Shown here: positions 7,589-64,000 of the stretch, piece by piece
Layout: every line of letters begins with the position of its first letter
Position numbering within the stretch: the first letter of the stretch is position 1
Source: a virus
Direction: 5' to 3' (one strand)
Length of the DNA: 64,000 nt
Virus record (IMG/VR): IMGVR_UViG_3300005590_000001
Span: 32,001 to 96,000 of that record
The notes under the pieces: generated by a model
Told to the model about the DNA's origin: nothing
Database searches by the model: none
Seen by the model: the letters and a program-made list of their open reading frames with translations, nothing else
Made by a program: the position numbers and the translations under genes

Positions 7589-9226
7589 TTACCAACATCC
7601 TATCCTTTCTCTAATTTCGGCGAGAGTAGTTTCATTCTGAATCTCACCATTACGAAAGACAGTTTGTAATTCATTACCAAGAGCTTCTTCTTCTTGGGTT
7701 ACATCCTCCACCAAATAGTATTTACCGTTAGTATCTTTTCTGACACACAGTAAACCTTTGGCCGACTTTTTAAATCCAGAATGTCCATCGGCACGTTTAT
7801 TTTTATTAGTCTTAGGATCTTTAAAGATGGATATAACTTGATCATTGATCACACAAGATGTGGCCTTACATGCAATGCCGAATGTATCTCGCGTAACATA
7901 CTGATATGTAAAACTGCCGAAGCCAAACACTACATTAGTACTAGCGAACTTTTGTTCAACCAGTCTCGTAATAATATTCTTAGCCTTATCATAATTAATC
8001 GAATCGCCGTAGATAAGTCCAATCTTAGGATTCAATTCTTTGTAACCCTTAGAATTAACGGTACTGCCAAAAATTTCATCAAGCACAGCAACACTACCTA
8101 TTGCTTCTTCTCTTGTAATTTCGCCATTTGCCGTCAGAAATCTACCATCGTCGGTTTGGGCACATTCTATTTGCTCGGAATATGTCATCTCATTCATTTT
8201 ACCAAATTGATAATTTGAATTATGATGTACCCTCGTAATTCTGTAACCGGCAACAATATGTCTAGGATCTCCACTGTCTGGTCTGATTACTAGCTTACCA
8301 TCCCGAGCAAGAATTTCATCTTTGAGCGCAGGTAAAAGTTTAGTTAAAACTCTCCAGTAATCATAGGTATCGCTAACTACTGACAGGATGCCTTTAGGAA
8401 ACCTCTTGAAGAGTTCTTTAAACCATTTTAGTTCGGCATCGTAACGTTCTTCTTCAGAAGTCAAGTTGTTAAAACTTGCCATTCCAATCTGCATAATAGA
8501 ATGTTCAGTTGCCGGAACGCTACCACCGACGAGTTCTTTTTCAATATCGGCACTATAAAATTCTTCTAGGAATTCAATACCGGGAATCGTATCAGTACCA
8601 TAAAAACTTAGAAGATGTGCGGCACCACTAGCACCGGCAGCTTCCATACCAAACAAACCACGCATAGAAAAATCATGACCTTGCCAAGGTACAAAGTTTG
8701 GATCGCCAGTTGCTTCGGCAAATTCATTTAACATTTGTCGAATATGATTAGCAGTAGTAGCTGAAGTCATAGGACCCCAAACAACATTTTGTTCAATGGT
8801 TTCTAAGTATCCCGGCAACCACGGAAAATCTTTATGAGTACTAACCATAGTGGTGAATGGAACTTTAGTCGGACACTTAGATCCTTCTGGCAGTGCTTTA
8901 ATATGGATCGGTAGATAACCAAGTTTGTGTAATTGCCGCAAATTATCAATAGGGTAATCGATTTCTTCTACACCAAGACAATGCTTAAGGATTCTACTAA
9001 ATCTATTGACGGCGTCGTTTTCATCAAGATCGAAGAAGTATTTGTTCCAATAATCTATTAAGTAGTGTTTAATGAAATATTGTAGGCCGAAAACTACAAC
9101 CTCATCTACATTTTCAACTCGCGAATTACGTGCTGTTGTGTTATTGTATACTTTGGTAACTCCATCAGCTACCATTTTAGGATGGAGACACTTATAAAAG
9201 TCTGCCGCACTAAGAGCGCTTTTCAT
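7589..9226 (-). CDS. nadV: nicotinamide phosphoribosyltransferase family (Nampt/Namat-like)
   Basis: DFYK, HDFSMRG, GTDT, PATEHS, SVVSDTYD, IRPDSGDP, GDSI, KKSAKG. Confidence 0.93.
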   Translation of the reverse strand: MKSALSAADFYKCLHPKMVADGVTKVYNNTTARNSRVENVDEVVVFGLQYFIKHYLIDYWNKYFFDLDENDAVNRFSRILKHCLGVEEIDYPIDNLRQLHKLGYLPIHIKALPEGSKCPTKVPFTTMVSTHKDFPWLPGYLETIEQNVVWGPMTSATTANHIRQMLNEFAEATGDPNFVPWQGHDFSMRGLFGMEAAGASGAAHLLSFYGTDTIPGIEFLEEFYSADIEKELVGGSVPATEHSIMQIGMASFNNLTSEEERYDAELKWFKELFKRFPKGILSVVSDTYDYWRVLTKLLPALKDEILARDGKLVIRPDSGDPRHIVAGYRITRVHHNSNYQFGKMNEMTYSEQIECAQTDDGRFLTANGEITREEAIGSVAVLDEIFGSTVNSKGYKELNPKIGLIYGDSINYDKAKNIITRLVEQKFASTNVVFGFGSFTYQYVTRDTFGIACKATSCVINDQVISIFKDPKTNKNKRADGHSGFKKSAKGLLCVRKDTNGKYYLVEDVTQEEEALGNELQTVFRNGEIQNETTLAEIRERIGCW

Positions 9227-26283: not shown

Positions 26284-26604
26284 TTAGCGGGCTTCTACGG
26301 AGCCTTGACTTCTCTCAAGAATTTCTTTTACTTTTTGTTTACGTTCTTTATGTTCTTTTTCTTTCTTATCATAAAGCTCATATATTGGTGTAATGTCATC
26401 AAAAACTTGTTCACACTTCAAACAGACCCTAATGGAATAAAATTTACTTGAAGTAAAAAAATCTGGTCTTAGTGATTTTTGACCCCTTTTTTCAAAACAA
26501 TCACACTCTATTTCGTAGAGAGACATAGTTTTGATAAGATAAAAATCATGTTGACACTCATCTGATTTGAAGAAACTTTTTATCCATGTAAAAAACTTAT
26601 TCAT
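26284..26604 (-). CDS. hypothetical protein
   Basis: ORF; C.H...VCLKC. Confidence 0.5.
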   Translation of the reverse strand: MNKFFTWIKSFFKSDECQHDFYLIKTMSLYEIECDCFEKRGQKSLRPDFFTSSKFYSIRVCLKCEQVFDDITPIYELYDKKEKEHKERKQKVKEILERSQGSVEAR

Positions 26605-28619
26605 GATATCTCCTGAATTTCTTTTTCAAACAGAATTCTATCTCTAACCTTCATCAGACAAAGCCCAAGCAAATTTTTACCCAACCACTTATCTGGGTCA
26701 CCTATCCTAGGATCATCGGCAGATAAACCAACACCCCAAATCTTATCATAAGGACTAGCTTCAATCAATACTGTATCATTAGTTGCTAGCAATCTTTCTT
26801 TAAGATCCTCATTCTGATTAAATTTCAACATATTAATGGAATTAACTATTTTTTTGTTAGATACACTCCACATATATTCATTGAAATTTTTTACCTGTCT
26901 TCCTAATTTTTTAACTTCATTTGGATCGTGTGTCTTTAAAATTCTTTCTTTAATTTGATGATCATCAAACAAATTTGCTTTCATAAACATCATAGCTTGT
27001 TCAGCAGATGTAAATTTACATTCCTCTCCACCAAGCATCATTTTAAAATTACATCTAAACCATTGACTTAAAAATCCATATTCTTCATTTACTCTGAAAA
27101 ATGTAATAAATTTTTTACCATTCCTCAAAGCAGATTTCATTCTTTTTTCTGTTTTCTTAAAGGTGTTATTTTTATTATACTTATCTCTTATATTTCCAAT
27201 TTCTACCTTAAGTATTTTTTCTTCCGGAGTCATTGTAAGAGATTTATAAAGACCCATACCATCTTTTATCAATATATCCTTATTGATATCATATTTGCTC
27301 AATTGAACACGATATACATGATCTAAAGCTTTACCCATTTCTGGTCCCGGCTTAGCACCAGCTTTAATCAAATCATAACCACTGACTTTTCGAGGCTCTT
27401 TGTCAAACAACACATTAAATTTAGACGCAGTCTCTTCTAAATTATGAATGAAGGCAACATGCTGATCATCTGGCAATTTATCACCGCGACCAAACATATC
27501 AGAGCGTACAAGCATCAACAATTCTGAAATATTTGTGCCAAACTCACTAAGTTTGAACGCTAATTTCTTAATATTTTTTGATGATAGTTTCATATTACTA
27601 TCAAGCATATGATACTTAGTTAAACCCTTAACTGGTCTAACATACATATTTGGAACACCAATCTGTTCAAAGAAATCATCAATAATATCATCGGCGATTC
27701 TTTCGTGATTGTGTGAAGCAATATGGCCTTTATGCAATTTGGTAGTTTTATACTTACCAATATCATGACACAATGCTGCAAAAAACATTTGAATACTATA
27801 ATCTGTATTAAAAATATTTCTTTGTGCAAGAATCGCATACATCATATCAACAACATGACATGTATGTGTGAAGACATCACCTTCTGGGTGATATTCTGAA
27901 TCTTGCGGCGTAAAAATCATTTGCTGAAGAGCAGGCGTATACGATAGCCAACCAGTATTATTCAAAAATTGCAATGCTCGACTCGGTTGAATAGAAGTTG
28001 CAATCTTTTTCCACTCTCCCCAGATTCTCTCTTTTGAGATTGTATAATAATCTCTATGCAGAATTTTAGAATATGTTATCAAATCTGCAGATGGTTCAAA
28101 TTGAAATCGTGCAAGAAATTGTGCCGCACGAAGAACACGCAATGGGTCTTCACAAAATTTTGCCGAAGTTGGATGCAAGATACCATCTTTAAGATTTTTT
28201 TGACCGCCGTAATGATCAATAATAGTGCCATCAAAACTCATCAACATAGAATTTATAGTAAAATCTCTACGAAGACAGGCTTCTTTTGTACTAGTATCTT
28301 TATCGGCGATTATTTTAAAATCTTTATGCGATGGTCCAGTGCTCTTTTCTCTTCTCGGCAAACTAAAATCAAATTCGCCGTCATCATTCGTCAACTTATG
28401 TACAAAAAAAGATTCGCCGTGAGAACTTACTTTACCATATTTTGACAAGGTCTCAACCAAATCTGCCGAATGAACATCATAGACCTCAACGTCCCAATCC
28501 TTTGGTTCATAACCAAGCAAAATATCTCTTACACAACCACCAGCCATAAACAATCTCGCCGAATAACCAGATTGTTTTAGCTCATTCTCAATTTTGAGAA
28601 GGGTCAAAGGAATATCCAT
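26601..28619 (-). CDS. cca: tRNA nucleotidyltransferase (CCA-adding) + HD domain + C-terminal NADAR domain
   Basis: GGCVRD..LG..PKDWD, RRDFTINS, EDPLRVLRA, ERIWGEW, HPEGDVFTHT, CHDIGK; C-terminal LSQW..SAEQAMM..KA..F..KKLGR..KF.QN..LIEASPYD.IWG.G..G.NLLG.LM.VR. Confidence 0.9.
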   Translation of the reverse strand: MDIPLTLLKIENELKQSGYSARLFMAGGCVRDILLGYEPKDWDVEVYDVHSADLVETLSKYGKVSSHGESFFVHKLTNDDGEFDFSLPRREKSTGPSHKDFKIIADKDTSTKEACLRRDFTINSMLMSFDGTIIDHYGGQKNLKDGILHPTSAKFCEDPLRVLRAAQFLARFQFEPSADLITYSKILHRDYYTISKERIWGEWKKIATSIQPSRALQFLNNTGWLSYTPALQQMIFTPQDSEYHPEGDVFTHTCHVVDMMYAILAQRNIFNTDYSIQMFFAALCHDIGKYKTTKLHKGHIASHNHERIADDIIDDFFEQIGVPNMYVRPVKGLTKYHMLDSNMKLSSKNIKKLAFKLSEFGTNISELLMLVRSDMFGRGDKLPDDQHVAFIHNLEETASKFNVLFDKEPRKVSGYDLIKAGAKPGPEMGKALDHVYRVQLSKYDINKDILIKDGMGLYKSLTMTPEEKILKVEIGNIRDKYNKNNTFKKTEKRMKSALRNGKKFITFFRVNEEYGFLSQWFRCNFKMMLGGEECKFTSAEQAMMFMKANLFDDHQIKERILKTHDPNEVKKLGRQVKNFNEYMWSVSNKKIVNSINMLKFNQNEDLKERLLATNDTVLIEASPYDKIWGVGLSADDPRIGDPDKWLGKNLLGLCLMKVRDRILFEKEIQEIS

Positions 28620-29356: not shown

Positions 29357-29634
29357 TGTTCATCTCCCGAAATTTAACAGTAAACTGAGAACCCCTTGGT
29401 CCACAACGTTTAATTTTAGTCTGAAATTTATCAGACAATTCTGCAGTTTTCATTTGTGCATCAACATAATTATTCAGAGGTTTTGTTTTGTTCCACTTCA
29501 TTTATATTAAATCCTTTGCTGAAAAAAGCATCAATGTCTTCTAAAGAAGACATATCAATTGCATTACCAAGCCGACGCAATTCATCCCAAATCAACTGTA
29601 TTTCAATTTCAAGTTCTGCTGAAGTTCTCATAAT

Positions 29635-29768
29635 TGGACCTGTTCGGAATCGAACCGAAGTCTTACCCGCTACTAGAATACCCGTAGTCTTTTGCTTGAG
29701 CATTTATCTACGTTACAGTCCCACCTGTAGATATCTATTTACACGAATAATCAAAACCAGTCAGGCCC
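29635..29768 (-). ncRNA. ssrA: tmRNA-like RNA, miniaturised (134 nt)
   Basis: GGGCCTG/CAGGTCC-A acceptor with G3.U70, stemless D loop ACTGGTTTTGA, helix 2a TTATTCGT/GCGGGTAA, GAC linker, TTCGG-TTCGATT-CCGAA T arm. Confidence 0.75.
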
Positions 29769-30106
29769 CAGTTCGGACAAACGTTATTCGCACGTTACAT
29801 GCTTAGAAAGAAATTCGAAAAATAAACCAAGATTTTCATCCTTGTAAAAAGGATCACACTTCATATTTGTAACATCAGGCATATTCTTATACCTTGCACG
29901 GTACAGATTATACGCCCATTGTCCACGCCGTAAATGATTTGGTGGATCTTGCGTATAAATCTCTATAACAAATTGACCAAGTTGTTCAGGAGTCATTCTG
30001 ATCCTTTATGTCTTCAAGAGTTTCTTGAGCCTTAGATGCCTTGCGTTGAAAATCTAACGCAATGATCATCAGTATAACAAACCAAAACAAAGGAGATTCA
30101 AACATA

Positions 30107-33386: not shown

Positions 33387-33458
33387 TGGGACATGAAGGA
33401 TTCGAACCTCTACCTGTAGGGTTACAGCCTAGCATGCTACCAATTACACCGATACCCC
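33387..33458 (-). tRNA. atypical tRNA-Tyr(GUA)-like, short variable loop, mismatches
   Basis: GGGGTAT/ATGTCCC acceptor, CTGTAAC loop, TTCGAAT T loop; C8, mismatched stem ends. Confidence 0.55.
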
Positions 33459-33735: not shown

Positions 33736-33808
33736 TAGCGAGTCAAGGAGTCGAACCTTGTGTACCACCTTATAAGGATGGCCCTCAAAACCGTCGAGGA
33801 CACTCGCC
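33736..33808 (-). tRNA. trnI: tRNA-Ile(UAU)
   Basis: GGCGAGT/ACTCGCT, CCATC-CTTATAA-GGTGG, CAAGG-TTCGACT-CCTTG. Confidence 0.75.
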
Positions 33809-34881: not shown

Positions 34882-35528
34882 AAAGAACACACTCTTAACT
34901 TCGTGGGGGTCGCTAAGAGGTTGGAACAAAGGTCGGAACTTATGATGCTATTGTTCCATTCACATCATAACTTCTTGCGGAAGCTTACAATAAAATCCTC
35001 AGATTTGCGGTCCTTAAACTTTATGGTAATGTTCCTCAGTAAGTCTAGCTCAATGTCACAAGGATCTATGAACCGTATTGACCCACCTAGCCTTTTGGAT
35101 CGAAGCATGCACTGTGATCATCCCTTTTATTATTGATAATATATAATAAAGGGATAAACCACAGCTTAAGCTGTGTGTCTCTTTTCGCACATTAGGCCGT
35201 TCCCTAAGTGGCTTATTCTTGGGAACTGTTCTAACTCTAATAATATAAAGCGCCGCATACTATTCCAGTTTGCCAAACTGTATTAAAGTATGATCCCGGC
35301 TTACACGGGATAGGGCCTTGCTTCGCACTATTGTGCTTCAGTACCATCACAAGATGGCATTAGAGGCGAAACGACAAGTATTTCAAACACCCGCTACTTA
35401 ACCTACCACACTGCGTGATTATGCTTTACATCCTGATGCTGATAGTCCATCAGAACAACAACATAATCTTTACATCATTTCACAAGTGTTCAAAATACCA
35501 ACTGTTCCCGTCTTTAACGGTCACATCA

Positions 35529-39431: not shown

Positions 39432-40422
39432 TTACGGCAGGGAAAAATTCGTCCCAACCACTGCCGTAGAACAAACGGGACTACCCCTGAATTACAGGAG
39501 AAAAGAACAGACGGCGGAAATCCAGAAGTTAGTGTCCACTGAACCCATATATGTTTTTAGATTCCGAGTGGCTATTGTAGGATTTCGGCTATCTTGCCGA
39601 TAGAAACGGCGACTGATCCCAATCAATCAGAACGCGGGAATGTTGGATATCGCTGGACTCACCCGTAGGCTTTTGAGGATTCCCGAATTACTTCGCCGTG
39701 ATACTGTCTAATCAATACTCGGCCGAATATTGACACAGCACAAAAGTCGGCAAATCGCCGACAAACAAAATCGAACCGAGCCATTACCAAATGAGCCATT
39801 ATAGCCGATTCTAGTATAGTCGGAACATTCTCAAACTGATATCAATCTGAGAAGTCCTCTAGAATACTGACTGAGTAGGGAATCGAACCCTCAACTCGGT
39901 TCTTTCCAAAATCGCCGAACAAAAATTCTTGCAGTATTGCCGCAATAGCTTTTATCGGCGAAATCCCAAGGTGCAAGACTATCAGCATCAACCAACAAAA
40001 TGCACCTTATGCCTTACCACTGATCCAAACAGGGATCACTTATCGGCTATCCGCCAATGTTATGCAACCGGAATGCCAGTCTCAAAATGATGACTGCAAT
40101 TCGGATTGTCGCAAGTGACTTCGCAATTCAAGCACAGTTTGTTTGCTGCACCTAATTGCATCGGTCGCTGAATCGAGTGTAATTCTGCCGATCCAGCCGC
40201 CGATTCTCTGTCAACAACCTCTTGAGCGTCAGTTGAATTATTGAACGGACCCCACAATGTTGCACTACCATTAGCATTAACAACTGTGACGAACCAATCT
40301 CTATTCAAATGACTATCCAACATGAAACACTCCTCAGAAACACAGCTTGCGAATGTCCGCCGATTGTTCTCTTTTCATGTAAATCCCGCCCGGCAAATGC
40401 CGGGCGGAATCCCAGACAACGC

Positions 40423-41058
40423 CTAGCTGTCGTCTTCGTCTTCGCCGAAATCGCCGAAGTCGAAATCGCCCATGACTTCGCCTGCGAGATTCGGTGCCCG
40501 CTTGCTGCGAAGATTGGTGTACTTCTTGACATTCTGTCGCAAAGCTACGGCAGCCTGTTCGTACAGATCCTCAGTGATATCGGTGAAACCAATATCCCGC
40601 AGACCCTCAACAGGATGAGCCACACGATCTTCGCCATCAAACGAATACTTGATGGAACTGGCGTCCTTTTCCATCGCGTTTCGAACTACCGTGTTCACGC
40701 CGCTTGTTCCGCGACCATCCACGATTCCGCCGAAGAACTTACGGCAGACCCCTTCGTAGATCTGATTCCGAGCGAATTCCAACGCACGATTCCACTGATC
40801 GCGGAAGATGTTACGTGGAATACCACCCAAACGCTTGTCCGGCAGCTTGCCATCCCAGCCGATCATTCGGCAGGCAACTTTCGGATTGGTCTCTCCGTTG
40901 ACCAGACAAAACGACGCAAAGTGCTGAAGCACGTATGCGTTAAACACTGGCGGGTCAACCGTTTCGTAATCACGAACACCCGGCTTTTCCCGCATTGCAG
41001 CAATGGAATTTTCCAAAGCTGCCGCGTACCATTCCTCAGTCTGTTTCGACACAGCCAT
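40423..41058 (-). CDS. hypothetical protein with acidic tail
   Basis: GAGGAG RBS; hairpin after stop. Confidence 0.7.
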   Translation of the reverse strand: MAVSKQTEEWYAAALENSIAAMREKPGVRDYETVDPPVFNAYVLQHFASFCLVNGETNPKVACRMIGWDGKLPDKRLGGIPRNIFRDQWNRALEFARNQIYEGVCRKFFGGIVDGRGTSGVNTVVRNAMEKDASSIKYSFDGEDRVAHPVEGLRDIGFTDITEDLYEQAAVALRQNVKKYTNLRSKRAPNLAGEVMGDFDFGDFGEDEDDS

Positions 41059-41607
41059 GAGAAAATCTCCTCAAAATGAGGTGAACAAAACTGTCCGACT
41101 ACTACGATTCGCCGAACAAAAATTCAGACAGAATGTCTTCGGTAATCGTACGATCACTCCTGACTTTCCGCCGTTTCTGTTTCCATGACAATCCCATTGA
41201 GGAACCATCAGAAAACCAATCCGTTACTTCGTCACCGAAGAACACTTTTGGAATGACCGTGCCATTCCATGCCGCGAACCGGACACACAAACGACCGTTC
41301 TCACGAAACAGGTCAGCAATCGCACACTTTTCGTGACTTTTGCCGTTAGATTCAACGATTGTGAACCGCCGGTTTTCCGCTTTTCGCGGGATTTTTAACC
41401 GTTTTCGCACCGTTTTCTCCGTTTTGTTGTCGTTGTCGTTGTTTGTGGTTGTCTCTGTCGCCACCCTATAAGCTATGGAGGGCACGTTGTCCGGTTTTTC
41501 TGGCAGGATTTGACGCTGTAATTTTGAACACTGTACAAACGTTGTGCGGACACTTGAAAGGTGTACAGTGTACAAGCGTAAGGTGTGCAAATGTGAGGTG
41601 TACAGAG

Positions 41608-43616
41608 GTGGGGTCGACAAGTGTTAAGTGTACAAATGTTCATCTGTCGCGGACATTTGTCCCGCGACCGCCTGTACAGTGTACAAACGATCAGGAGAAC
41701 AAATGTTCAGTCAAACAAACCGCTCCCCTGTACAAGCGTACAGGGGAGGGTTGCTGTACAGATGTCAACTGTCTCTGCGATGGTTCAAACCACCATGCCG
41801 CCGATGACTGGGCACCTGTCCAGTGTATTGGAACATTGTACATTCGTCCATGCAGACGTGGTCCTCCATTTTCTTCTCTAGACTCTTGTACAGGTCCTTC
41901 AGGCGAGCGAAGTACGCTGAACGCTTGATCCGCCTGAACTTATGATCAGCGGCAATTCCGAGATCAGCGTCGCCGTTCTTTCGTAGACAATTGTACAGTG
42001 CCACGCGGCGGAACTTCTGATCGACATTCGGGAACATGCTGGACAGATGATCAGTGTGTTCGATCTGACTCTGCAAAAGAGCCAACTGGTTATCTGTCCA
42101 GTTCAGCGAATCGTCCATCATCATCTCATGAAGTGGAAACTTGTTCAGCTTGCCGTATTCGTCGTGAGTTCGGCGGACTGTATTCATGTACAGGTCCACG
42201 TGCTTCTCACGAGACTGACGATTCAGCATAGTGTACAAAGTTACACCGATGAACTTCAGGTTTCGCAGTGAACGGGTGTACACTACTTCCTGTGGTCTGG
42301 ACGATTGTCCAATTTGAATCCACGTCGGTTTCTGCTGGACAAATGTCCCGAAGATTCCGGTGGATTCTTCGTAACTGATCGGATGTTCAAGCGGACCTTC
42401 GAGCGAGGTCATTTTACTGAACTGACGTATATATGATTCGCTGCGGGACCGAATACTGAACTCGTGTCCAGTTTCCAAACATCTGAATCGAATTTCTTTC
42501 ACCTTGCGATTCTGTACAGTGTTCTTTTGATCAGTACGTCGGCTGACCGTTTCCATATCGACCACGTGGATTTTACTGTCCACACGTTCAACTGTACGTG
42601 CGACCAGATAGGCTTTTCCGCGGTCAGTCGGATCGAACCACCTGCACAGTGTTGAACAATTGTTCATCAAAAACGCTCGCTGGCAGGCGTCCTCAATATC
42701 ATCTCCGCTGAAAATTTGATCAGGGAGTTGCAACCCACTGGACACGCGTCCATCTCGCTGCTGATCCGGATTGAACATCTTTCCGCCCCGACCATGATTC
42801 GCGGTCCCGTCAGTGGAATGATGTACAGTAGTCCGTTCTCGCATCGAATTCAGCTTGGTGGACACGCGTTCACCCCGCTTCCGGTTCTGTGCATTGCAGA
42901 AATCGGCCACAAACGGATCACTGATCGCACGTATAGTGGTCAGAATCTTGATCTGTTCATCTGTATAGTGAATCCCGTTGTCGAGATTCGGTTCAGGTGA
43001 ACAATTGGACAGTGCCACGAACAAGCACCTTGCAGCACGAAGCGGCATTGTACATCTGTACACTGTCGGTCGTGCCATGAATCCGGTGCGTGTCCTGTAC
43101 AGTGTGAACCGAAGCATACGCTGGTCAGTTGTCCACGCGTTGTCCATATTGAGCATATGTTCAGCACAGTACCAATGATCAGTAACGTCATCGACCCACG
43201 CTGGACATTCGCTGTCCATAGACAGATGTTCAGCCATATCGGCGACTGAACCGATGTACACTGGAATTCCGGTATCTTCTGCCGCACGAATTGTGGGGAG
43301 CTGGCGGAATGCCTGCATTGACATTTGTTCACGTGTAACGCCTGTCATGGAAACGCCGGTTGGGAAACTGTTCATCTGTACACTCCTCAAAACAAGAGAG
43401 AAACGGTCGGCTGAACACATGTCCAGCCGCCCGGCAGACTGCCGGGAAACCCATTGTAGCAAGCTGTCCGGCAAAATCCACACAATTCGGGAAAGATTTT
43501 TACTGGAATATTGAACACTGTACAGACTATCAATGTACAAAGTGACACTGTACAAGAGTGGGGTGGACATCTTTGCACTGTACAAATGTTCTCTCTCGCG
43601 GACATTTGTCCCGCGA
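41608..43616. repeat. ~60-bp imperfect direct repeats (41608-41667, 43558-43616) bracketing a TGTACA-saturated block
   Basis: GTGGGGT.GACA......TGTACAAATGTTC...TCGCGGACATTTGTCCCGCGA in both copies. Confidence 0.85.
41765..43375 (-). CDS. hypothetical protein (~536 aa)
   Basis: long ORF; GAGGAG RBS 7 nt before ATG 43375. Confidence 0.7.
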   Translation of the reverse strand: MNSFPTGVSMTGVTREQMSMQAFRQLPTIRAAEDTGIPVYIGSVADMAEHLSMDSECPAWVDDVTDHWYCAEHMLNMDNAWTTDQRMLRFTLYRTRTGFMARPTVYRCTMPLRAARCLFVALSNCSPEPNLDNGIHYTDEQIKILTTIRAISDPFVADFCNAQNRKRGERVSTKLNSMRERTTVHHSTDGTANHGRGGKMFNPDQQRDGRVSSGLQLPDQIFSGDDIEDACQRAFLMNNCSTLCRWFDPTDRGKAYLVARTVERVDSKIHVVDMETVSRRTDQKNTVQNRKVKEIRFRCLETGHEFSIRSRSESYIRQFSKMTSLEGPLEHPISYEESTGIFGTFVQQKPTWIQIGQSSRPQEVVYTRSLRNLKFIGVTLYTMLNRQSREKHVDLYMNTVRRTHDEYGKLNKFPLHEMMMDDSLNWTDNQLALLQSQIEHTDHLSSMFPNVDQKFRRVALYNCLRKNGDADLGIAADHKFRRIKRSAYFARLKDLYKSLEKKMEDHVCMDECTMFQYTGQVPSHRRHGGLNHRRDS

Positions 43617-43675
43617 GCACGTTAGAATCTGTGCCCACGGGCAGCCCGATTGCTGCCCGTTCTTACTTTTGAGAA

Positions 43676-44116
43676 TCAGCGTCGTTTGCGGCGTACTATT
43701 CTTTTGCAATCACACTTGCGTGCGGCGGCAAGAGCGGTTTTCTTGTCGATTCCCATTTCTTGCAATTCTTTTGCTTTGTCGAGAATCGACTGCATTCTGT
43801 ATTGGAATTCTTGTCTAGCTGGCGGGATATTCGTGCCATGATAATTAACCTTAATTTCATTTCCCGCTGGATACAACGATGCACCTTCTGGAACTCCCAG
43901 ATATGAGAATTCTCCATTGTGACGGAATGGTCTGTATCGTTGACGATCCTGTGCGAGATTCGGAAAGATTCCGAAAATCGTATATGTGTTTCGCTCATCT
44001 GACAGCAGATCACCAGCGTGAGACGCTGTGTATATTACGCGTTTGACGCCTTCGCGGTCTTTGAAGACGAAAACGAAATCGTACTTATGGTGACGGTAAT
44101 TTGCAGGAAACAACAT
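43676..44116 (-). CDS. hypothetical protein
   Basis: AGGAG RBS. Confidence 0.6.
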   Translation of the reverse strand: MLFPANYRHHKYDFVFVFKDREGVKRVIYTASHAGDLLSDERNTYTIFGIFPNLAQDRQRYRPFRHNGEFSYLGVPEGASLYPAGNEIKVNYHGTNIPPARQEFQYRMQSILDKAKELQEMGIDKKTALAAARKCDCKRIVRRKRR

Positions 44117-44475
44117 TATTCAAACTCCTAAAACAGAGAAGGGAAACCACCCGCAGGATCCTGCGGGTGGTGGTCGTCAAGTCTTACAATCTTTCGATTG
44201 AGTGTATTACTTCATGCGGATCTGGATTTGATTCTGCCTTTCCGCGACACTGGATACAAACGTCCAGAATAGCATGGTCGAAAACTTTACCATCCTGCTG
44301 ACTGACTCCGGAAAAACAGACCCGGTATTTTTTCGGGCAGAGATTACAAACGTGGCATTTTCCCGGATACATCCGGTCAAGATAATTCAGAATTGCATCG
44401 TTTGATAGCATTTCGTCACCTTCAGTTGAATGAAGACCACCCGCGGGACGTCCCGCGGGTGGTGGTCGCCAGATT

Positions 44476-44952
44476 CTACAGTTTCTCGATTGCGATCTCT
44501 GCCAAATTGGCATACGGATTGCCAATCCACAACTGAATGCCAGCATGCTTCGCTGTCAGCAGAGCCTGTTCATGCGTGAATTCACGCTCTTCGATTCCCC
44601 CGTTTTCCACAATTTGGACCACGATTTTCCCGTTAATGGGAAATACCATAATTCGCCGATTTTCATCGGCGACGATTCCGAAGCGATTGTCCCATCGTGA
44701 AAAGTGGGTGATTGCATACGGCGCAGCCTTGTCTTGATCCCTCAGTTCAAGATATCCCTTGGCGGTGATTTCGTTCAACTTTTCCTTGACACCATTGACA
44801 GCCATCGGACGACCAGTCTTGTCGTTGGGAAAAAATGTTCCCATTGTCCGCATTGCGGGTGGCTTTCCGTTCTCGAAAACGAATTTGCAGTAAACGTCCA
44901 AGAATCGCGCCTGTCGTTCCGTAAGTTTGTTTTCCGTTGCCTTGCGTTTCAT
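44476..44952 (-). CDS. LexA-like N-terminal DNA-binding domain protein lacking an obvious S24 peptidase
   Basis: LTERQARFL.......NGKPPAMR.MG......V...L..I..KGYL. Confidence 0.7.
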   Translation of the reverse strand: MKRKATENKLTERQARFLDVYCKFVFENGKPPAMRTMGTFFPNDKTGRPMAVNGVKEKLNEITAKGYLELRDQDKAAPYAITHFSRWDNRFGIVADENRRIMVFPINGKIVVQIVENGGIEEREFTHEQALLTAKHAGIQLWIGNPYANLAEIAIEKL

Positions 44953-45009
44953 CGTGTGAACTCCTGAAAAGAGAATGTTTGACGCGGTCGATTGCCGCGT
45001 TCTGCCCCT

Positions 45010-45037
45010 ATTCTAGCGACTGTTCTAGGATCGTCAA
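45010..45037 (-). promoter_or_regulatory. sigma70-like promoter upstream of LexA-like gene
   Basis: TTGACG-16 nt-TAGAAT. Confidence 0.5.
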
Positions 45038-45133
45038 CAATAAAATTTTACTTTTGTGCAATGGACAAAATCACAGCTTGTTCCCATTTATAGGAATCTA
45101 AATTGTCACTATTGAGAATCCCGAAATTGAGAG

Positions 45134-45599
45134 GACCATTCCTATTTATAAGAATCTCGAAAATCGCGGACATTTGTCCCGCGATCACGCATTTCCTTTT
45201 ACAAAGAAAAGAGCATCGGCCGATCTCCGATGCTCTTGGTCGTTTCGTTCAATCCTGCTTCCGGACCCTCAGGATCGTCGCTTCAGGGTATTCACTCCGA
45301 AACTTGTTCCGGGCATGCTGCTCGGATGACGCCTGAGTGACAAAATAAATTCCGTCAGCATTCTCGACACTGTACCGGGCATAAAGCTCCGGCCGATAAA
45401 CCCGTTCCTTTGTGTTCATGTTGTCTTTCCTTGTAAATCAGGAAACAAAGCGAATCACAGCGAAGTGCTGTGAACTGACACCATATTAACGAGTGAATTC
45501 CGGTTGTCAACATAGCCTTATAAGAATTTTTTACTCCCAATTTTGGGAAGACCATTCCTATTGATAAGAATATATTCGCTCGCGGACATTTGTCTCCGC
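45134..45599. repeat. direct repeat GACCATTCCTATT.ATAAGAAT...CGCGGACATTTGTC (45134-45184, 45550-45599)
   Basis: two intergenic copies ending in the same GGACATTTGTC element as at 41647/43596. Confidence 0.75.
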
Positions 45600-45674
45600 T
45601 CGAAAACGCATAAACGCCCAAGAGATCTTGGACGAGAAAAGCCCGCGGGTTTCCCCGCGGGCTGGGTTCAGTTC

Positions 45675-46112
45675 TTATTCCAGTGGTCCGAGTTCATTCA
45701 CATCCCGAAAAATTGGCTGACACAATCGGAATTCTTGCTGTGTGCCATTCGGCCAGATTCTAAACTTCGCTCCCTCCTTCTCTCTGCAATCCATGCATAC
45801 GTTCCACATCGAATCGTTAATGTCATCATTATCAATCATCATCCCAACCCACATTCGGGTGCCGGTCAATCTGCTTCGCAGAAAATTGCGGATGATAGCA
45901 CTAGATACTGACGGGCCAGCTTTTGCTACAGGGTTGATATGGAACCACCGTACCCTGAGACCCACCTTGGTGGTTTCATAGGCAAGACACCCCGCCATTG
46001 CTCCATCAGGATACGCCATCACAACATAGTGCATATCCTGCGTCAGGAGTGATGCAGGAGCGCCCATATATTCGGCGACAGTGTCAGCAACTTCGAAATA
46101 TTCAAAAACCAT
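45675..46112 (-). CDS. hypothetical protein (possible GNAT-like fold)
   Basis: start MVFEY after GGAG; GCLAY...RVRWFHINP. Confidence 0.45.
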   Translation of the reverse strand: MVFEYFEVADTVAEYMGAPASLLTQDMHYVVMAYPDGAMAGCLAYETTKVGLRVRWFHINPVAKAGPSVSSAIIRNFLRSRLTGTRMWVGMMIDNDDINDSMWNVCMDCREKEGAKFRIWPNGTQQEFRLCQPIFRDVNELGPLE

Positions 46113-46170
46113 GAGCGTTCTCCAAAAAACACCCGCGGGTTTCCCCGCGGGTGTCGATTCAGACCCAACC

Positions 46171-46461
46171 TTACAATTCAACTTCTGTCCGTGCTACGGT
46201 GTCAGCATTGAAACGGGCATGAATGCGGGCACCACCCGTTGTGCGGTCAACGCTGCATTGCATTGTGTGTGGCAATGCTGACTGAAACGCCGTGATAAAC
46301 GCGTCACAATCAACAACGTGAAACCCGATCACATTCCGGCTGATCCCGTCAGGGAATTGCAATTCCCAGACATCCGAATCCAGCACGGAAGCATATCCAG
46401 CACGGCGCAAAGTAGCGGCAAGCTGAATTTCACTTCGGTCGTCCACAATAGAAACGAGCAT
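46171..46461 (-). CDS. hypothetical protein
   Basis: ORF between hairpin repeats. Confidence 0.55.
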   Translation of the reverse strand: MLVSIVDDRSEIQLAATLRRAGYASVLDSDVWELQFPDGISRNVIGFHVVDCDAFITAFQSALPHTMQCSVDRTTGGARIHARFNADTVARTEVEL

Positions 46462-46645
46462 ATCAAACCCCTAAAAGAGACCCGCGGGTTTTCCCGCGGG
46501 TGGTGTGAAACTGCCTCACGCGAGGTAGTCGATAACTTCTTCAATCTTGGTCACTGTCCACTCTGACAACAAAACCAAGCCCCAAATTGGCATCACAAAC
46601 GCCAGCACAACTGACACTCCGATCAGAATCGGCAACTCAAACAAA

Positions 46646-46918
46646 TCACGCATCTTTCAACTCCCGTGGCCAGATAATGCTGACCGCATAATCGGCATCC
46701 CAACCGATTCGATTATTGGAAATCACAATTTGCCAGACTGCTTTGCGATTCTTCCGGGCATACCGTCGACGCTCCACGATGAACGTCTGACCCGCAAAGC
46801 TGATCTGCCTAGGTTGTCGGCGGAATTCGCTAAACTTGAAGACGACTGACCGGCCATCTTGGTGCTTCAATCCCCAGTGAGTATCGCTGGGATCCTGCGA
46901 AATATATCGCGTTGCCAT
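46646..46918 (-). CDS. hypothetical protein
   Basis: start MATRY inferred. Confidence 0.5.
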   Translation of the reverse strand: MATRYISQDPSDTHWGLKHQDGRSVVFKFSEFRRQPRQISFAGQTFIVERRRYARKNRKAVWQIVISNNRIGWDADYAVSIIWPRELKDA

Positions 46919-46977
46919 AATGTTGTTCCCTTTTGGGAAAGTATTGTTCGCTGTGACCGTCACAGCACTGAGCACCA

Positions 46978-47005
46978 ATTATAACATCGGCAGGAACAAT
47001 CGCAA
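46978..47005 (-). promoter_or_regulatory. sigma70-like (extended -10) early promoter
   Basis: TTGCGA-16 nt-TATAAT with TGn. Confidence 0.5.
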
Positions 47006-47426
47006 GGCTTTAGTTTTATTTTCTCGTTTGTGTCGTAAGTAGTTGGGACATAACGGCTTAGGGCGGGGTTTTTCATTCTCAAAAATGGTTTTGTGGGGAG
47101 GGCCGGAATCGCCGGGGCCTCAACACACGAACTTCAGCACTTTCCCCACAACATCCGCGGACATCTGCGGGCAACCCCAATAAAAAAGGCCATGTCACCT
47201 TATGATGACACAGCCCTATCATTGTTCAACATCCTCTAAATTTTTTTACTCGTTTTGGTCCAAAGTCCTAAAAACAACTGATGATGTTTCATTATGTACA
47301 TACACAATGTCGCCACAGCCCCAACTTCCAGCCTTGATGACTTTGGACTCTTTGTATCCATCTTTTCCAATATAAGAAGTAACTTTGAGATCCTTTTTCA
47401 ACTCTTTCTTCGGAAATCTAGGTATT

Positions 47427-47864
47427 TTACGCATTTGCATCGGTCGCTTCCCCTTCCCCAACGTTCATTGGGCTGCTATCGAGATCATATCCCGGAGAAT
47501 TACCGTCCCAATGAACGTTGTACCACTCATTTTTAGACATAATCTTCTCAGCCTGTGACTTTGATATGTTGTAACGTGCCATTAAGTCAGACACCTCACT
47601 GCCTCTAGCAGCAGAACGCCGTACTTTCTGGGCCTTACAAAACATAGAATAGCGATACTCTGCCTTCTCGGCCCGTGCTTTCGCGCGGACCTTCGAATCT
47701 GAAGTCCGCGCGCCTTTAATTACTGGTGTAGTCAAAGCTCTTTCACCAAGCCATCCACGTTTTGCACGCTTCACAAGTATATCTCTCGTGAGTTCAGGGT
47801 GAATTCGAGAATCTTCGAGCCAGTCCTCTATAGCCTTATCTGCACCAAATGCTTGCAAGTTCAT
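47427..47864 (-). CDS. putative DNA-binding protein
   Basis: R.KRGW..ERALTTP and C-terminal HTH-like segment. Confidence 0.5.
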   Translation of the reverse strand: MNLQAFGADKAIEDWLEDSRIHPELTRDILVKRAKRGWLGERALTTPVIKGARTSDSKVRAKARAEKAEYRYSMFCKAQKVRRSAARGSEVSDLMARYNISKSQAEKIMSKNEWYNVHWDGNSPGYDLDSSPMNVGEGEATDANA

Positions 47865-48103
47865 CTTTTCTCCTAATTATTTTATAAAAATTTACCGAAA
47901 GTAAGAAAATCGTAAATATTTTAAAAATTTCGGGTAATAATAAGTGTACGGCGATTCGGACATCTGCCGACTACAAATAATTACGCAAATTTTCAGGAGA
48001 ATATTAAAAATGTCCGCAAAAATTATTTATGGTAACGTTGAACTGGTTATACAGGAAACCCCAGAACTAGAGCGAAGCGTAGCTTCGGACTTACAGAGAG
48101 AAG

Positions 48104-59933: not shown

Positions 59934-60944
59934 ATGTCGAAATTATTTAGTGAAATTTCTGAAGAAACTAAAGAAGTTTTGAAGTCTACGGCTTCACGCG
60001 ATGAAGCAGTGCGCGCCAAAGCTATCACTCAGTTTCTTGAAGCTGTCGAACTCCCGATTCGACAGGGTGTGATGGATGGTGAGAATACCGGTGGTATTTT
60101 CAATGTCACACAAATCCCTGCTGGAACAACCCCTGAATTCCCGATTGACTTTGTCGAGCCGGGTACTGAAGGACAATTCTTAGCGTGGACAAATCCGGGT
60201 AAAGGTTATATTCCTGCGATCGCAATCAACGGTTCGAAAATCGTTGGTCAGATCATCGGATCTACCTTTGCTGTTGAATACGATCTGGAATACGCACGTA
60301 ATGCACGATGGGATATTCTGGCTCGTCTTTCTGAAGTCTTCATGGCGTCTTTCGTCAAGAAGCGTAACGATGATGGTTGGCATACGCTTTTAGCTGCTGC
60401 TGCCGGTCGTGGTATGTTGGTTTATGATCCGGCTGCTTCAGCTGGTTCGTTCTCGAAGAAGCTTTTCTCTCTGCTACGATGCTCAATGGCTCGTAACGGT
60501 GGTGGAAATCAGACTTCCTTGAAGAAATCCCGAGCCACCGATGTATATATTTCTTGTGAGGGTGTCGAAGAAATCCTGAACTGGGACCTGTCTCAAGTTC
60601 CTGATTCTGTTCGAGCACAGCTTTATAATATGAGCAATGGTCAAGATACTGTTGTGGATATTTTAAAGACTCGCGTTCATGAAATGTATGAACTTGGTGT
60701 TGGCCAAGAATATCAGACTTACTACTCTACCAATCTTGGTGGATCTCTAGAAAGTTCCGATACTGAACTTGGTATTGCTCTAGACCTTGCAAATCGTGAC
60801 TCTTTTATCTTTGCCTTTACTCAGCCTCTAGAGGTTTACGAAGATCCTGCTCTGCATAGATCTCAAATGGGTGGATGGTATGGATGGGAACGTTACAGCG
60901 TTTTAGTTCTTGACAATCGACGAATTCTTCCTATCAGCTTCTAA
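59934..60944 (+). CDS. major capsid protein
   Basis: synteny, 336 aa, strong RBS, terminator after. Confidence 0.8.
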   Translation: MSKLFSEISEETKEVLKSTASRDEAVRAKAITQFLEAVELPIRQGVMDGENTGGIFNVTQIPAGTTPEFPIDFVEPGTEGQFLAWTNPGKGYIPAIAINGSKIVGQIIGSTFAVEYDLEYARNARWDILARLSEVFMASFVKKRNDDGWHTLLAAAAGRGMLVYDPAASAGSFSKKLFSLLRCSMARNGGGNQTSLKKSRATDVYISCEGVEEILNWDLSQVPDSVRAQLYNMSNGQDTVVDILKTRVHEMYELGVGQEYQTYYSTNLGGSLESSDTELGIALDLANRDSFIFAFTQPLEVYEDPALHRSQMGGWYGWERYSVLVLDNRRILPISF

Positions 60945-60973
60945 GAAAGCTGGGGAAAATTAATAAAAGATTT

Positions 60974-61014
60974 GGGCCTACGCAACTCTGATGGGGTGTG
61001 ATAGGCCCATTTTT
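60974..61014 (+). terminator. intrinsic terminator after capsid gene
   Basis: GGGCCTA...TAGGCCC-ATTTTT. Confidence 0.65.
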
Positions 61015-61107
61015 ATATCATTAATTATAAGGTATTATTGAATTATGAACTCGAATATCATTCAAAGACTCGGGAACTTCCGAGAGAAACTGTGGGGGTG
61101 GAAATAG

Positions 61108-62232
61108 ATGACGACATACTACGCGACACACAATGCAGCGGGCGGCGGTGCCGGCACATCTGTCGGTGACCCGTTCACTTTGCAGGAACTGTTCGACACT
61201 GTCACCAATTCCGATCTAGGGTTGATCTGCAACACCGGCACGTATACCCCATCGGCTCAGATTGATGTGGATAACGGTGCAAATGTTGGCACGGTTTCTG
61301 CGCGAACCCAAATCCGCGGTGCCGCATCGGATGGCACCGACGATGGGACAATTGCGACGATCAGTGGAAGCAGTCTCGGAGCATCCACCGATCTGATCAG
61401 TATTGACATCAACTACTATTACATCGCAAATCTAAGGATCACTGGAGCGACGCGATACAACGTCTACAGCGATTCGGATGGCAGCATCTGGGAAAACTGC
61501 CGGCTGGACAACGCGACCAGTCATGGATTCTGGCAGCAGACGAATCTTGACACCACCATCTTCAAGGTATGCGAAATCGACAACAACGGCGGTGCAGGAT
61601 ACACCGGCGGCTTCGACTCGCGAGGCTGTGGGATATGGGAGTCGTGCAGTATTCACGACAATGGCAGCTTTGGACTGAAACTCACTCCCGTCGGGAGAAT
61701 GATCGACACGATTGTCTTCAAGAACGGCGGCGATGGCGTGCGGATAGATATGAATTCGCACAGTACTGAAAACGGTGCGATCATTAACTGCACAATTGAT
61801 GGCAACACTGGAGACGGCATTGAAAGTGTGAACTCCACAATCGCGTCTGATTCGATGTCGATCGCCGATACGATCATCAGTAACAACGGAGGGTATGGGA
61901 TCAACCTCAACAGTACTCCACTGACGGGGTTCCAACTCAGGTTGCTGTGTGTCCCGACCAGCACAGGTGCAAATTCATTGGGGCAAATTGATGCTGGAAG
62001 CCTGCCTGCGGACACGGTGACAGATAACCCGGACTTTGTGGACAGAACAACGGGCGGCAGCGAGGACTACACGCCACAAGGCACAGGGCTGAAAGTGACG
62101 CGGTCTCCAATCAGTGGTGTCGGCGGCGACAGCTATAAGTGGGTTGGGGCAATTCAACCAGATACAGCATCGAGCGGTGGTGGCCTATTGGGGGTGACTG
62201 CTGCGTCTATGTCGGGAGGCATGAGAGCATGA
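61108..62232 (+). CDS. right-handed parallel beta-helix (pectin-lyase-like) protein
   Basis: repeated C.I.NN.G.G / I..N.GDGI motifs. Confidence 0.75.
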   Translation: MTTYYATHNAAGGGAGTSVGDPFTLQELFDTVTNSDLGLICNTGTYTPSAQIDVDNGANVGTVSARTQIRGAASDGTDDGTIATISGSSLGASTDLISIDINYYYIANLRITGATRYNVYSDSDGSIWENCRLDNATSHGFWQQTNLDTTIFKVCEIDNNGGAGYTGGFDSRGCGIWESCSIHDNGSFGLKLTPVGRMIDTIVFKNGGDGVRIDMNSHSTENGAIINCTIDGNTGDGIESVNSTIASDSMSIADTIISNNGGYGINLNSTPLTGFQLRLLCVPTSTGANSLGQIDAGSLPADTVTDNPDFVDRTTGGSEDYTPQGTGLKVTRSPISGVGGDSYKWVGAIQPDTASSGGGLLGVTAASMSGGMRA

Positions 62233-62660
62233 CAGCAATTCTTGCAGGATCAACTGACCAATCAGTCGACGTGTTCATCGCGGACTCGTCGTCATCAGTC
62301 GGGGCGGGCCTCACGGGGCTTGTCTACAACACATCGGGCCTCACGTGCTACTACCGCAAGGGGGCCACAGGGACTATGACCGCGTTGTCGCTGGCAACAC
62401 AGACGGTTGGTGGTGCCCATTCGGACGGGGGGTTTGTCGAGATCGACGCCACAAATGCTCCGGGTCTCTATCGTCTGGATCTCAGCGACACAATTGTTGC
62501 GGCTGAAGGACGGGCCAGTCTATACCTGCACGGTGCGGCGAACATGGCACCATGCGTTGATCGAATTGACTGTGTGCCGATCCCGTCCAACGTCAAGCAG
62601 ATCAATGACGTGGCAATCACGGGCGATGGTTCTTCCGGTGACAAGTTCGGGGTTGACTGA
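62229..62660 (+). CDS. hypothetical virion-associated protein
   Basis: ATG overlaps previous TGA; EID....PGLYRLD. Confidence 0.6.
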   Translation: MTAILAGSTDQSVDVFIADSSSSVGAGLTGLVYNTSGLTCYYRKGATGTMTALSLATQTVGGAHSDGGFVEIDATNAPGLYRLDLSDTIVAAEGRASLYLHGAANMAPCVDRIDCVPIPSNVKQINDVAITGDGSSGDKFGVD

Positions 62661-64000
62661 TGGCGAACGACGTTCTTGAACCAATCTTCGGCGATGTGTG
62701 GGGCGACGTGTGGGAGCAGGATGCTCGCCCCGCGTCATGGCCGGATTACATGGCCAACCGGAAGATCACCGGCCTGACGACGATCACACCAAAGATCAAG
62801 TGCCAACTTGTCAGCGGCACGATGCCATTTGCGGTGCAGGTGTCTGCCGAGCAGACCACGTATGACGCATCCGGAAACCCCTATTTCGATTTGCACTACG
62901 AGTGGGACTTTGGCGACCCGTCCTCCACGGAAATCTTCTACTCGAAGATGACAGGGCAGTACCTCAATTCCAACAGTGATCAGATTACGCCTGACGCGAC
63001 GCACCTTTATCGCAGTGACGGCAGCTACACAATCACGCTGACGGTCAAGGGAATCAACGAGTACGGGCAGACGGTTTCCGCCAGTACAACGAGCATCCTG
63101 ACGCTCGGCGACTACGAGATATTCATGGGCGGTGCGACAGGCGGCACGTTCACGCTCACGGTCGATGGACAGACAACCTCGGCGATCGCTTATGACGCTA
63201 CGATGGCAACCATCGTCACCAATCTGGAAGGCCTGAGTACGGTCGGCAGCGGCAACGCAAGAGACACAGGGCGAGGGACGTTTGAGCTGTGCGGTGACTT
63301 GGCTGGCGACACGCTGACGGTCTCGGCGAATTTCGGCAGTCTGACAGGTGTTGGAACTGGCGACTCTGCACCTCAGTTGATTGAGCGGGCAACAAGTGCG
63401 ACGGCATCGAGTATCACGGTTGCGGATCTAACGGGGTGGACACAACGCTGGTTCGATCCAAGTGCTGGAACGAATGGCGATGGGTTGTCGTCTGCTAGTC
63501 CGTGGAATGACGCCAGTGAGGCGTTCGATCATTTGAGTTCCAGCGTCAACTCATCGGACAAGGCGTGGCTGTGGCTGGCAACCGATTCGACGTGGGAGAT
63601 CGAAGCAAACCGGATACCGATGGAGAGTGTCAGTGGGAGAGTCATTGCCGCGTACGGTTCTGGGGCGAAACCGATCATCAAGAATGAAACAGGAAGTTTC
63701 ACGTTCAATGTTGAGTTGTTCTACTTCGCTCTACCGTACTCGTCAGGCGGAAACCTGACGGAATCAGAATTTAAGATCATCGGGTGCGACCTTCGCGGGA
63801 CACGAACAAGTGCCATTGCGTGTGTGCAAATTACACAGACAAACAATGGCACCAGCACAACACCTCGCACATGGTTTCGTGATGGTTTGATCGCTGATTG
63901 CGACTTCACCCGAACTGCTGGAAGTGGTCAGCTTTATCGCACGGATGGTACAGAGACTGTTCACAATGTTGTGAGTTGGGACACCGACTATGACGGGGGT
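62660..64000 (+). CDS. PKD-domain protein (runs off window)
   Basis: Manual translation MANDVLEP...HYEWDFGDP...ATHLY...G.YTITLTV. Confidence 0.7.
   Translation, partial: MANDVLEPIFGDVWGDVWEQDARPASWPDYMANRKITGLTTITPKIKCQLVSGTMPFAVQVSAEQTTYDASGNPYFDLHYEWDFGDPSSTEIFYSKMTGQYLNSNSDQITPDATHLYRSDGSYTITLTVKGINEYGQTVSASTTSILTLGDYEIFMGGATGGTFTLTVDGQTTSAIAYDATMATIVTNLEGLSTVGSGNARDTGRGTFELCGDLAGDTLTVSANFGSLTGVGTGDSAPQLIERATSATASSITVADLTGWTQRWFDPSAGTNGDGLSSASPWNDASEAFDHLSSSVNSSDKAWLWLATDSTWEIEANRIPMESVSGRVIAAYGSGAKPIIKNETGSFTFNVELFYFALPYSSGGNLTESEFKIIGCDLRGTRTSAIACVQITQTNNGTSTTPRTWFRDGLIADCDFTRTAGSGQLYRTDGTETVHNVVSWDTDYDGG

Follow-up and report, generated by a model that had tools for sequence, protein, structure and literature searches.

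A short tmRNA-like phage gene with a conserved folded inner domain

Phage-encoded tmRNAs that consist of the tRNA-like domain (TLD) only are already known. Mycobacteriophage DS6A carries one, entered in the tmRNA Website as 'Standard, no CDS' under tmID 11587 (Mao et al. 2009, via the passages on this phage in PMC4131195 and PMC11915505). According to these passages, a DS6A-like TLD-only molecule is a strong inhibitor of E. coli tmRNA, possibly because it titrates SmpB (PMC4131195, PMC11915505). TLD-only tmRNA accepts a nascent peptide in vitro, as stated in a passage of PMC3895274 that cites Shimizu and Ueda (2006). In the curated tmRNA database, 'Standard, no CDS' entries number only 9 and phage entries 79; candidates with large internal deletions were rejected by its authors (PMC11915505). 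Tag-less phage tmRNA fragments are hardly annotated, with DS6A as the one described case, and our literature search found no published description of a structured form of 118–146 nt. We report an intermediate, structured form of this kind from a phage genome, together with ~50 further genes recovered by a restrictive pattern.

The RNA gene and its phage setting

The window, the whole 64,000-nt stretch of DNA analyzed here, corresponds to bases 32001–96000 of a 171,987-bp IMG/VR virus record with direct terminal repeats (IMGVR_UViG_3300005590_000001). The stretch is present in three marine-sediment metagenome DNA runs. It encodes a terminase (only ~25% identical to Bacillus siphophage terminases), a portal protein, five to six tRNAs, a nicotinamide phosphoribosyltransferase (NAMPT), and a CCA-adding enzyme.

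The window also harbors a 134-nt tmRNA-like RNA with a complete tRNA-like domain, running on the minus strand from G1 at 29768 to the discriminator A73 at 29635 (29635..29768, matched by Rfam RF00023 and our family model R2); all of its parts given below lie on this strand. The 5' strand of the acceptor stem, GGGCCUG (29762..29768), pairs with CAGGUCC at 29636–29642 in seven pairs including G3.U70, and the 3' strand together with A73 spans 29635..29642. A stemless D-loop analogue, ACUGGUUUUGA (29751..29761), aligns with the tmRNA consensus D loop at high posterior probability. Helix 2a comprises eight pairs (RNA positions 19–26 with 99–106), its 5' strand at 29743..29750 pairing with 29663–29670. 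The conserved GAC at the junction of helix 2a and the T arm (29660..29662) was recognized by both the Rfam alignment and a tmRNA-specific pattern, and the T arm UUCGG-UUCGAUU-CCGAA (29643..29659; 5-bp stem, loop UUCGAUU) is paired in 100% of the family described below. AUU follows A73, showing that the CCA end is not encoded.

The Rfam tmRNA model RF00023 aligns with the RNA from end to end (38.4 bits, E-value 9.5e-14 in an 801-nt search, 4.8e-15 when the whole genome was searched), placing the T arm, the stemless D loop, helix 2a, and GAC, that is, the SmpB-binding region, at high posterior probability. The score is below the curated gathering threshold of 47 because ~235 RF00023 model positions, representing the message and the pseudoknots, are deleted. 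The tmRNA-specific pattern matched once in the window versus 0/100 shuffles. ARAGORN did not call the 134-nt RNA, although it called five tRNAs in the window. The family model R2 scored the RNA at 135.7 bits and found one copy in the genome. An initial annotation, made from the sequence alone and naming covariance models and ARAGORN as checks, had listed the hallmarks of the tRNA-like domain and proposed a very short tmRNA-like phage gene. The hallmarks were all borne out by the RF00023 alignment, the pattern, and the stem pairing, at exactly the coordinates given, and the gene is genuine, with ~70–72 nt between the strands of helix 2a.

The RNA is tightly packed between small minus-strand ORFs, starting 16 nt after the stop codon of one (29784–29996) and ending 3 nt before the ATG (29631) of a downstream 53-aa ORF, which suggests that it is probably cut from a polycistronic transcript. 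Promoter and terminator scans gave results at chance level. At 29629–29645 (minus strand), the only SD-like AGG of the 53-aa ORF sits in the acceptor stem, so that excision of the RNA would remove the ribosome-binding site of this ORF. On the same strand, ~1 kb downstream of the RNA, lies the CCA-adding enzyme gene (26601..28619; PolyA_pol head, HD, and NADAR domains in Pfam; PHROG tRNA nucleotidyltransferase at 3e-66), whose product is a candidate supplier of the missing CCA end. Its C terminus is fused to the NADAR domain (Pfam 1e-49), so that tRNA-end repair and an ADP-ribose-processing domain are combined in an unusual way. SmpB, a full-length tmRNA, RF-1/ArfB domains, and peptidyl-tRNA hydrolase (Pth) were all absent from the phage genome, and the RNA must therefore use host factors.

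Several further features of the window were recorded. The NAMPT gene is located at 7589–9226, and a 606-aa ORF at 41765–43585 had no PHROG match. An Rfam tRNA at 33387–33458 (minus strand, 46.8 bits) was missed by ARAGORN, and the tRNA-Ile(UAU) that ARAGORN called at 33736–33808 (minus strand) reached only 38.9 bits in Rfam. A Twister-sister ribozyme-like match at 35237–35328 (minus strand; 29.2 bits against a cut-off of 34, E-value 0.004) recurs in the close relative (L004, 1785–1876). The G+C content is 47–52% at 40001–48000 and 60001–64000 and 33–39% in the rest of the genome; these stretches may be recently acquired blocks.

A conserved inner fold in a family of short RNAs

Between the strands of helix 2a, the inner 70 nt fold as a three-way junction of helix 2b, hairpin A, and hairpin B. 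We compared two foldings, one with the tRNA-like domain constrained and one with the inner 88 nt folded freely, and both returned the identical junction (z = −2.3 for the free fold). Helix 2b joins RNA positions 32–39 with 87–95, its 5' strand (29730..29737) pairing with 29674–29682 around one bulge; the 3' strands of helix 2b (29674–29682) and helix 2a (29663–29670) together occupy 29663..29682. Hairpin A (29714..29729, RNA positions 40–55) has a 5-bp stem and the hexaloop GUGGGA, and hairpin B (29683..29712, RNA positions 57–86) has a 5-bp stem and a 20-nt A-rich loop, both appearing in either fold. The hairpin-B loop contains AUAAAU-GCU and a possible 3-bp mini-stem, UGC/GCA. The pseudoknots PK1–PK4 have no counterpart in the window RNA, whose inner hairpins are just two, both simple. 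A search for a pseudoknot between loops A and B, as an analogue of PK1, found pairing between invariant columns only, and covariation was absent.

The closest relative is a 27.6-kb viral contig with a 96% identical CCA-adding enzyme and a 134-nt gene carrying two differences. This contig was the only related phage locus recovered with the CCA-adding enzyme as query, and a blastn search of 50,697 phage records with the 601-nt region gave no match. We then scanned public collections with a pattern limited to a portion of the T loop with GAC and, across a gap, the tmRNA-type D loop with GGG, which leaves the 3' strands, acceptor complementarity, G3.U70, A73, and the 5-bp T stem unspecified. With a gap of 40–100 nt, it matched 7 viral contigs, 43 metagenome contigs, and 13 genome contigs. 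A complementary acceptor stem, G3.U70, A73, and a 5-bp T stem were found in 7/7 viral, 36/43 metagenome, and 9/13 genome matches, and the acceptor stem was a perfect 7 bp in all but one of these (6 pairs). The remaining matches look like chance. The scan thus yielded ~50 further tmRNA-like genes of 86–146 nt, mostly 118–146 nt, in viral contigs, metagenomes, and metagenome-assembled genomes (MAGs). The generic pattern with a gap of 101–131 nt found nothing, and a pattern based on loop B gave four new matches in viral contigs, all of which were judged chance by model R1.

Model R1, built from the window RNA and its near twin only, scored six unrelated metagenome and viral sequences at 61–88 bits (L051 at 88 bits, the five others at 61–69 bits). 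We define the 118–146-nt family by the tRNA-like domain, helices 2a and 2b, and hairpin B with its A-rich/GCN loop, and treat hairpin A as a trait of the core group; the R1 scores and pair counts place the window RNA within the family. G1-C72, G2-C71, and G3.U70 are invariant in 40/40 members. Every member also has intact, unvarying identity elements for alanyl-tRNA synthetase (AlaRS), SmpB-binding region, and EF-Tu-binding arms. GC-richer members with the same architecture scored 59–64 bits in RF00023, above the cut-off of 47. Across 25 family loci, ARAGORN placed the short tmRNA correctly in one (L037) and made dubious long calls in two.

In the core alignment (11 sequences), 93.7% of cells in the proposed pairs were standard pairs, compared with 62% in shuffles and 31–48% with slid partners. 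Both sides had changed in 32/38 pairs, including all of those in helix 2a (8/8), helix 2b (8/8, compensatory), hairpin A (5/5), and the hairpin-B stem (5/5). The wide set (40 distinct sequences) gave 92.5% paired cells versus 61% in shuffles and at most 50% with slid partners. Both alignments were fitted to the model, which favors the structure, yet the margin over the slid controls is still large. In the near-identical relative, the sole internal difference turns U38.G88 of helix 2b into U38-A88. Loop sequences are also retained: loop A keeps its sequence in the core set (consensus GUGGUA; GUGGGA in the window), and loop B shows, family-wide, an A-rich run, GCN, a few bases, and then GCAAA or similar. 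An unstructured leftover is ruled out for the inner region by the conserved three-way junction with its compensatory changes. The initial annotation, which had pictured almost no mRNA-like domain, overlooked that the inner 70 nt form a covariation-supported domain throughout the family; the middle part of the RNA is, judged from these alignments, no tag message but a folded domain that has been conserved. The same annotation had allowed that relatives might be full-length and the short form a recent deletion. The near-identical relative also has the short form, and the short size recurs in distant relatives (~50 genes), so the short length is, by this comparison, conserved and not the outcome of a recent deletion.

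Many family members adjoin tRNA arrays, and phage-like genes flank some of them. On one 24-kb contig, for instance, an array of 32 tRNA genes is immediately preceded by a short tmRNA-like gene of 146 nt (L048, 7317–11409). The neighbors at two other loci (L007, 2086–2979; L049, 1774–2244) include an RlaP-type RNA-repair nucleotidyltransferase and a SpoU-family RNA methyltransferase, which hints at an RNA repair or modification context there. None of the flanking proteins was common to the window and other family loci.

Short forms also occur beside cellular tmRNAs. Three Anaerolineales MAGs and one Cytophagales MAG hold a normal tmRNA of 369–426 nt (124–142 bits) and, on another contig, a short copy scoring 59–64 bits. 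Contig pairs from these orders (L068/L075, L069/L073, and L071/L074) carry short copies of 123–149 nt above the Rfam cut-off, and the short copy on L073 adjoins a run of tRNA genes. Compared in the Cytophagales MAG and two of the Anaerolineales MAGs, the short and the full copy differ in acceptor stem and helix 2, which indicates that the short forms are a separate lineage and not deletions of the resident tmRNA gene; this lineage is probably mobile. In a 0.6-Mb Saccharibacteria MAG, the best tmRNA match is a short form of 133–136 nt (64 bits; L072, 1501–1636) on an 89.8-kb contig (L060/L072). Neither a full-length tmRNA nor SmpB was detected in this MAG, which is either an incomplete bin or a cell relying on the short form.

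The putative tag frame and the proposed role

The window RNA contains a putative tag frame of GCU, 11 further codons, and UAA (29663..29701, minus strand), encoding AQAKDYGYSSSG. AUAAAU precedes GCU and the UAA lies within the 3' strand of helix 2a, as the initial annotation had described. The idea of a tag frame found no support in relatives, which do not conserve it. When 30 family members were anchored on the conserved GCN of the hairpin-B loop and stops were counted before the 3' end, an in-frame stop was present in 14/30, compared with 16/30 and 12/30 in the other two frames, and two of the 30 lacked stops in all three frames. In L051, the closest distinct relative, an in-frame stop is missing, and a 1-nt indel immediately after GCC separates two members that are close to each other, L049 and L054. 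Because stops are not in excess and indels break the frame, the family has no conserved reading frame, and we rejected the tag frame as a trait of the family. By chance, about half of all RNAs of such size would be expected to have an open frame of 12 codons.

Moderate confidence attaches to our preferred reading, that the RNA is an alanine-charged, SmpB-binding competitor of the host tmRNA that adds no degradation tag; we consider this its most likely role, ahead of a working short template. The RNA would be a compact tmRNA derivative, expressed and processed like a tRNA, in which the tRNA-like domain and a full-length helix 2 are kept and a small three-way junction replaces the message and four pseudoknots. 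RNase P, cutting at G1, and 3' trimming would release it from the polycistronic minus-strand transcript, after which the CCA-adding enzyme of the phage or the host would complete the end. Host AlaRS would then alanylate it through G3.U70 and A73, and host SmpB and EF-Tu would bind the charged RNA. Since all 40 members keep G3.U70, selection seems to have acted on alanine charging and not just on shape. By competing with the host tmRNA for SmpB and stalled ribosomes, the RNA could take the stalled peptide but would provide no conserved degradation tag, so that phage proteins would be spared SsrA-directed proteolysis, or host trans-translation would be blunted. Sequestration of SmpB or AlaRS, or rescue without a tag, had been suggested from the sequence alone, and the TLD-only form of DS6A offers a published precedent, together with the similar molecule that inhibits E. 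coli tmRNA. Against a pure decoy stands the fact that a tRNA-like domain of ~80 nt would suffice, as in DS6A; an extra 70-nt domain with conserved loops under selection suggests that the RNA does something beyond acting as a decoy. The inner domain may hold the RNA on the ribosome, show a vestigial resume site, or bind another factor. The 12-codon frame with its stop, and the pyrimidine at −5 and purine at −4, speak against the tag-less reading in the window member.

These last features would be expected of a working minimal tmRNA, with which the phage would run its own ribosome rescue without proteolysis by adding a non-degron tail, a reading we hold doubtful. The tRNA-like domain would move to the P site, the hairpin-B loop would enter the mRNA channel, and GCU would be decoded; 12 codons would then be read, with melting of hairpin B and helix 2, and translation would terminate at UAA. 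Placement of the resume codon guided by SmpB favors a pyrimidine at position 85 and a purine at position 86, and AUAAAU, with U at −5 and A at −4, resembles the AUAGUC of E. coli in this respect (PMC8363625). This context keeps the idea alive that the window member may function as a short template. The frame and its stop exist, GCN after an A-rich run is conserved family-wide, the possible UGC/GCA mini-stem parallels the U88-A100 hairpin of E. coli tmRNA (PMC8363625), and natural tags of 2 aa are known (PMC11915505). The single frame difference in the near-identical relative, GGG to GGA, is synonymous, but it is equally explained by structure, as it is the change from G.U to A-U in helix 2b. 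Members with UA(A/G) at −5 to −3 have an in-frame stop in 4/5 cases, a result that is not significant, and the stop counts, the two members that are stopless in all frames, the missing stop in L051, and the indel between L049 and L054 argue against a template. Equivalents of PK1 or helix 5 were likewise not demonstrated. That the whole family represents a natural minimal trans-translation RNA, its hairpin-B resume site (A-rich run and GCN) being placed in the A site by SmpB, seems to us slightly less credible again. If it were true, phages would run their own rescue, ending tagless or with a short non-degron tail, and all four pseudoknots and helix 5 would be dispensable in nature.

The close packing between small ORFs and the position of the SD-like AGG within the acceptor stem would also suit a tRNA-like punctuation signal that directs RNase P and 3' processing between cistrons, or stabilizes the upstream message, with no role on the ribosome. 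Processing needs shape only, however, whereas G3.U70, A73, the tmRNA-type D loop, GAC, and helix 2a are present in 40/40 diverse members in unrelated contexts, and we regard this explanation as improbable. Even harder to credit is a decaying remnant of a full-length phage tmRNA left by a recent internal deletion, or an attachment-site leftover from a host ssrA. Full-length tmRNAs are indeed found in phages, and integration into ssrA is common (PMC9004378, PMC11915505), but attachment sites carry the 3' part only and the tRNA-like domain here has both ends. Distant relatives have RNAs of the same size and fold, with compensatory changes, the short copies differ in acceptor stem and helix 2 from the cell's tmRNA in MAGs with both forms, and the genome is a 172-kb record with direct terminal repeats. 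Pair covariation in the core and wide sets largely refutes this origin.

The finding suggests that phages, in taking over their hosts, recurrently target trans-translation or use it as a tool. The family offers natural minimal tmRNA scaffolds for assessing the contributions of helix 2, the resume region, and the pseudoknots, and a family covariance model would recover genes that are now annotated as intergenic space.

Comparison with known systems

Relative to bacterial SsrA RNA (RF00023), the window RNA shares the acceptor stem with G3.U70, A73, the stemless D loop, GAC, the T arm, and helix 2, as well as, where the resume region lies, GCN after an A-rich run. It differs in length (134 nt versus ~350–420 nt) and in having no PK1–4, helix 5, conserved tag frame, or degron. 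The 2-aa tags of Fermentibacterota demonstrate that rescue can persist with hardly any tagging left (PMC11915505); these tmRNAs are otherwise full and cellular, with validated resume and stop codons, and in this the window RNA is unlike them.

The initial annotation had compared the RNA with message-less tmRNAs of protist mitochondria. In jakobid and oomycete mitochondria and in Mallomonadaceae plastids, tmRNA has been cut down to the tRNA-like part with no tag frame, and it is conserved together with SmpB and serves the organelle's own SmpB (PMC11915505). These organelle RNAs are permuted or ~65 nt long, whereas the window RNA belongs to a phage that lacks SmpB, and it carries an additional structured domain. 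The comparison holds as an analogy and as that alone, the closer precedent being found in phages, with DS6A. Like the DS6A molecule, the window RNA is phage-encoded, has the tRNA-like domain of tmRNA with alanine identity, and contains no conserved tag CDS; it would probably act via host SmpB, and a molecule similar to that of DS6A inhibited E. coli tmRNA in the passages cited above. In these passages, DS6A tmRNA is described as little beyond the tRNA-like domain. The 134-nt window RNA, in contrast, happens to have a 12-codon frame and keeps a full helix 2 (2a and 2b), to which two conserved hairpins are added, ~70 extra nt under purifying selection.
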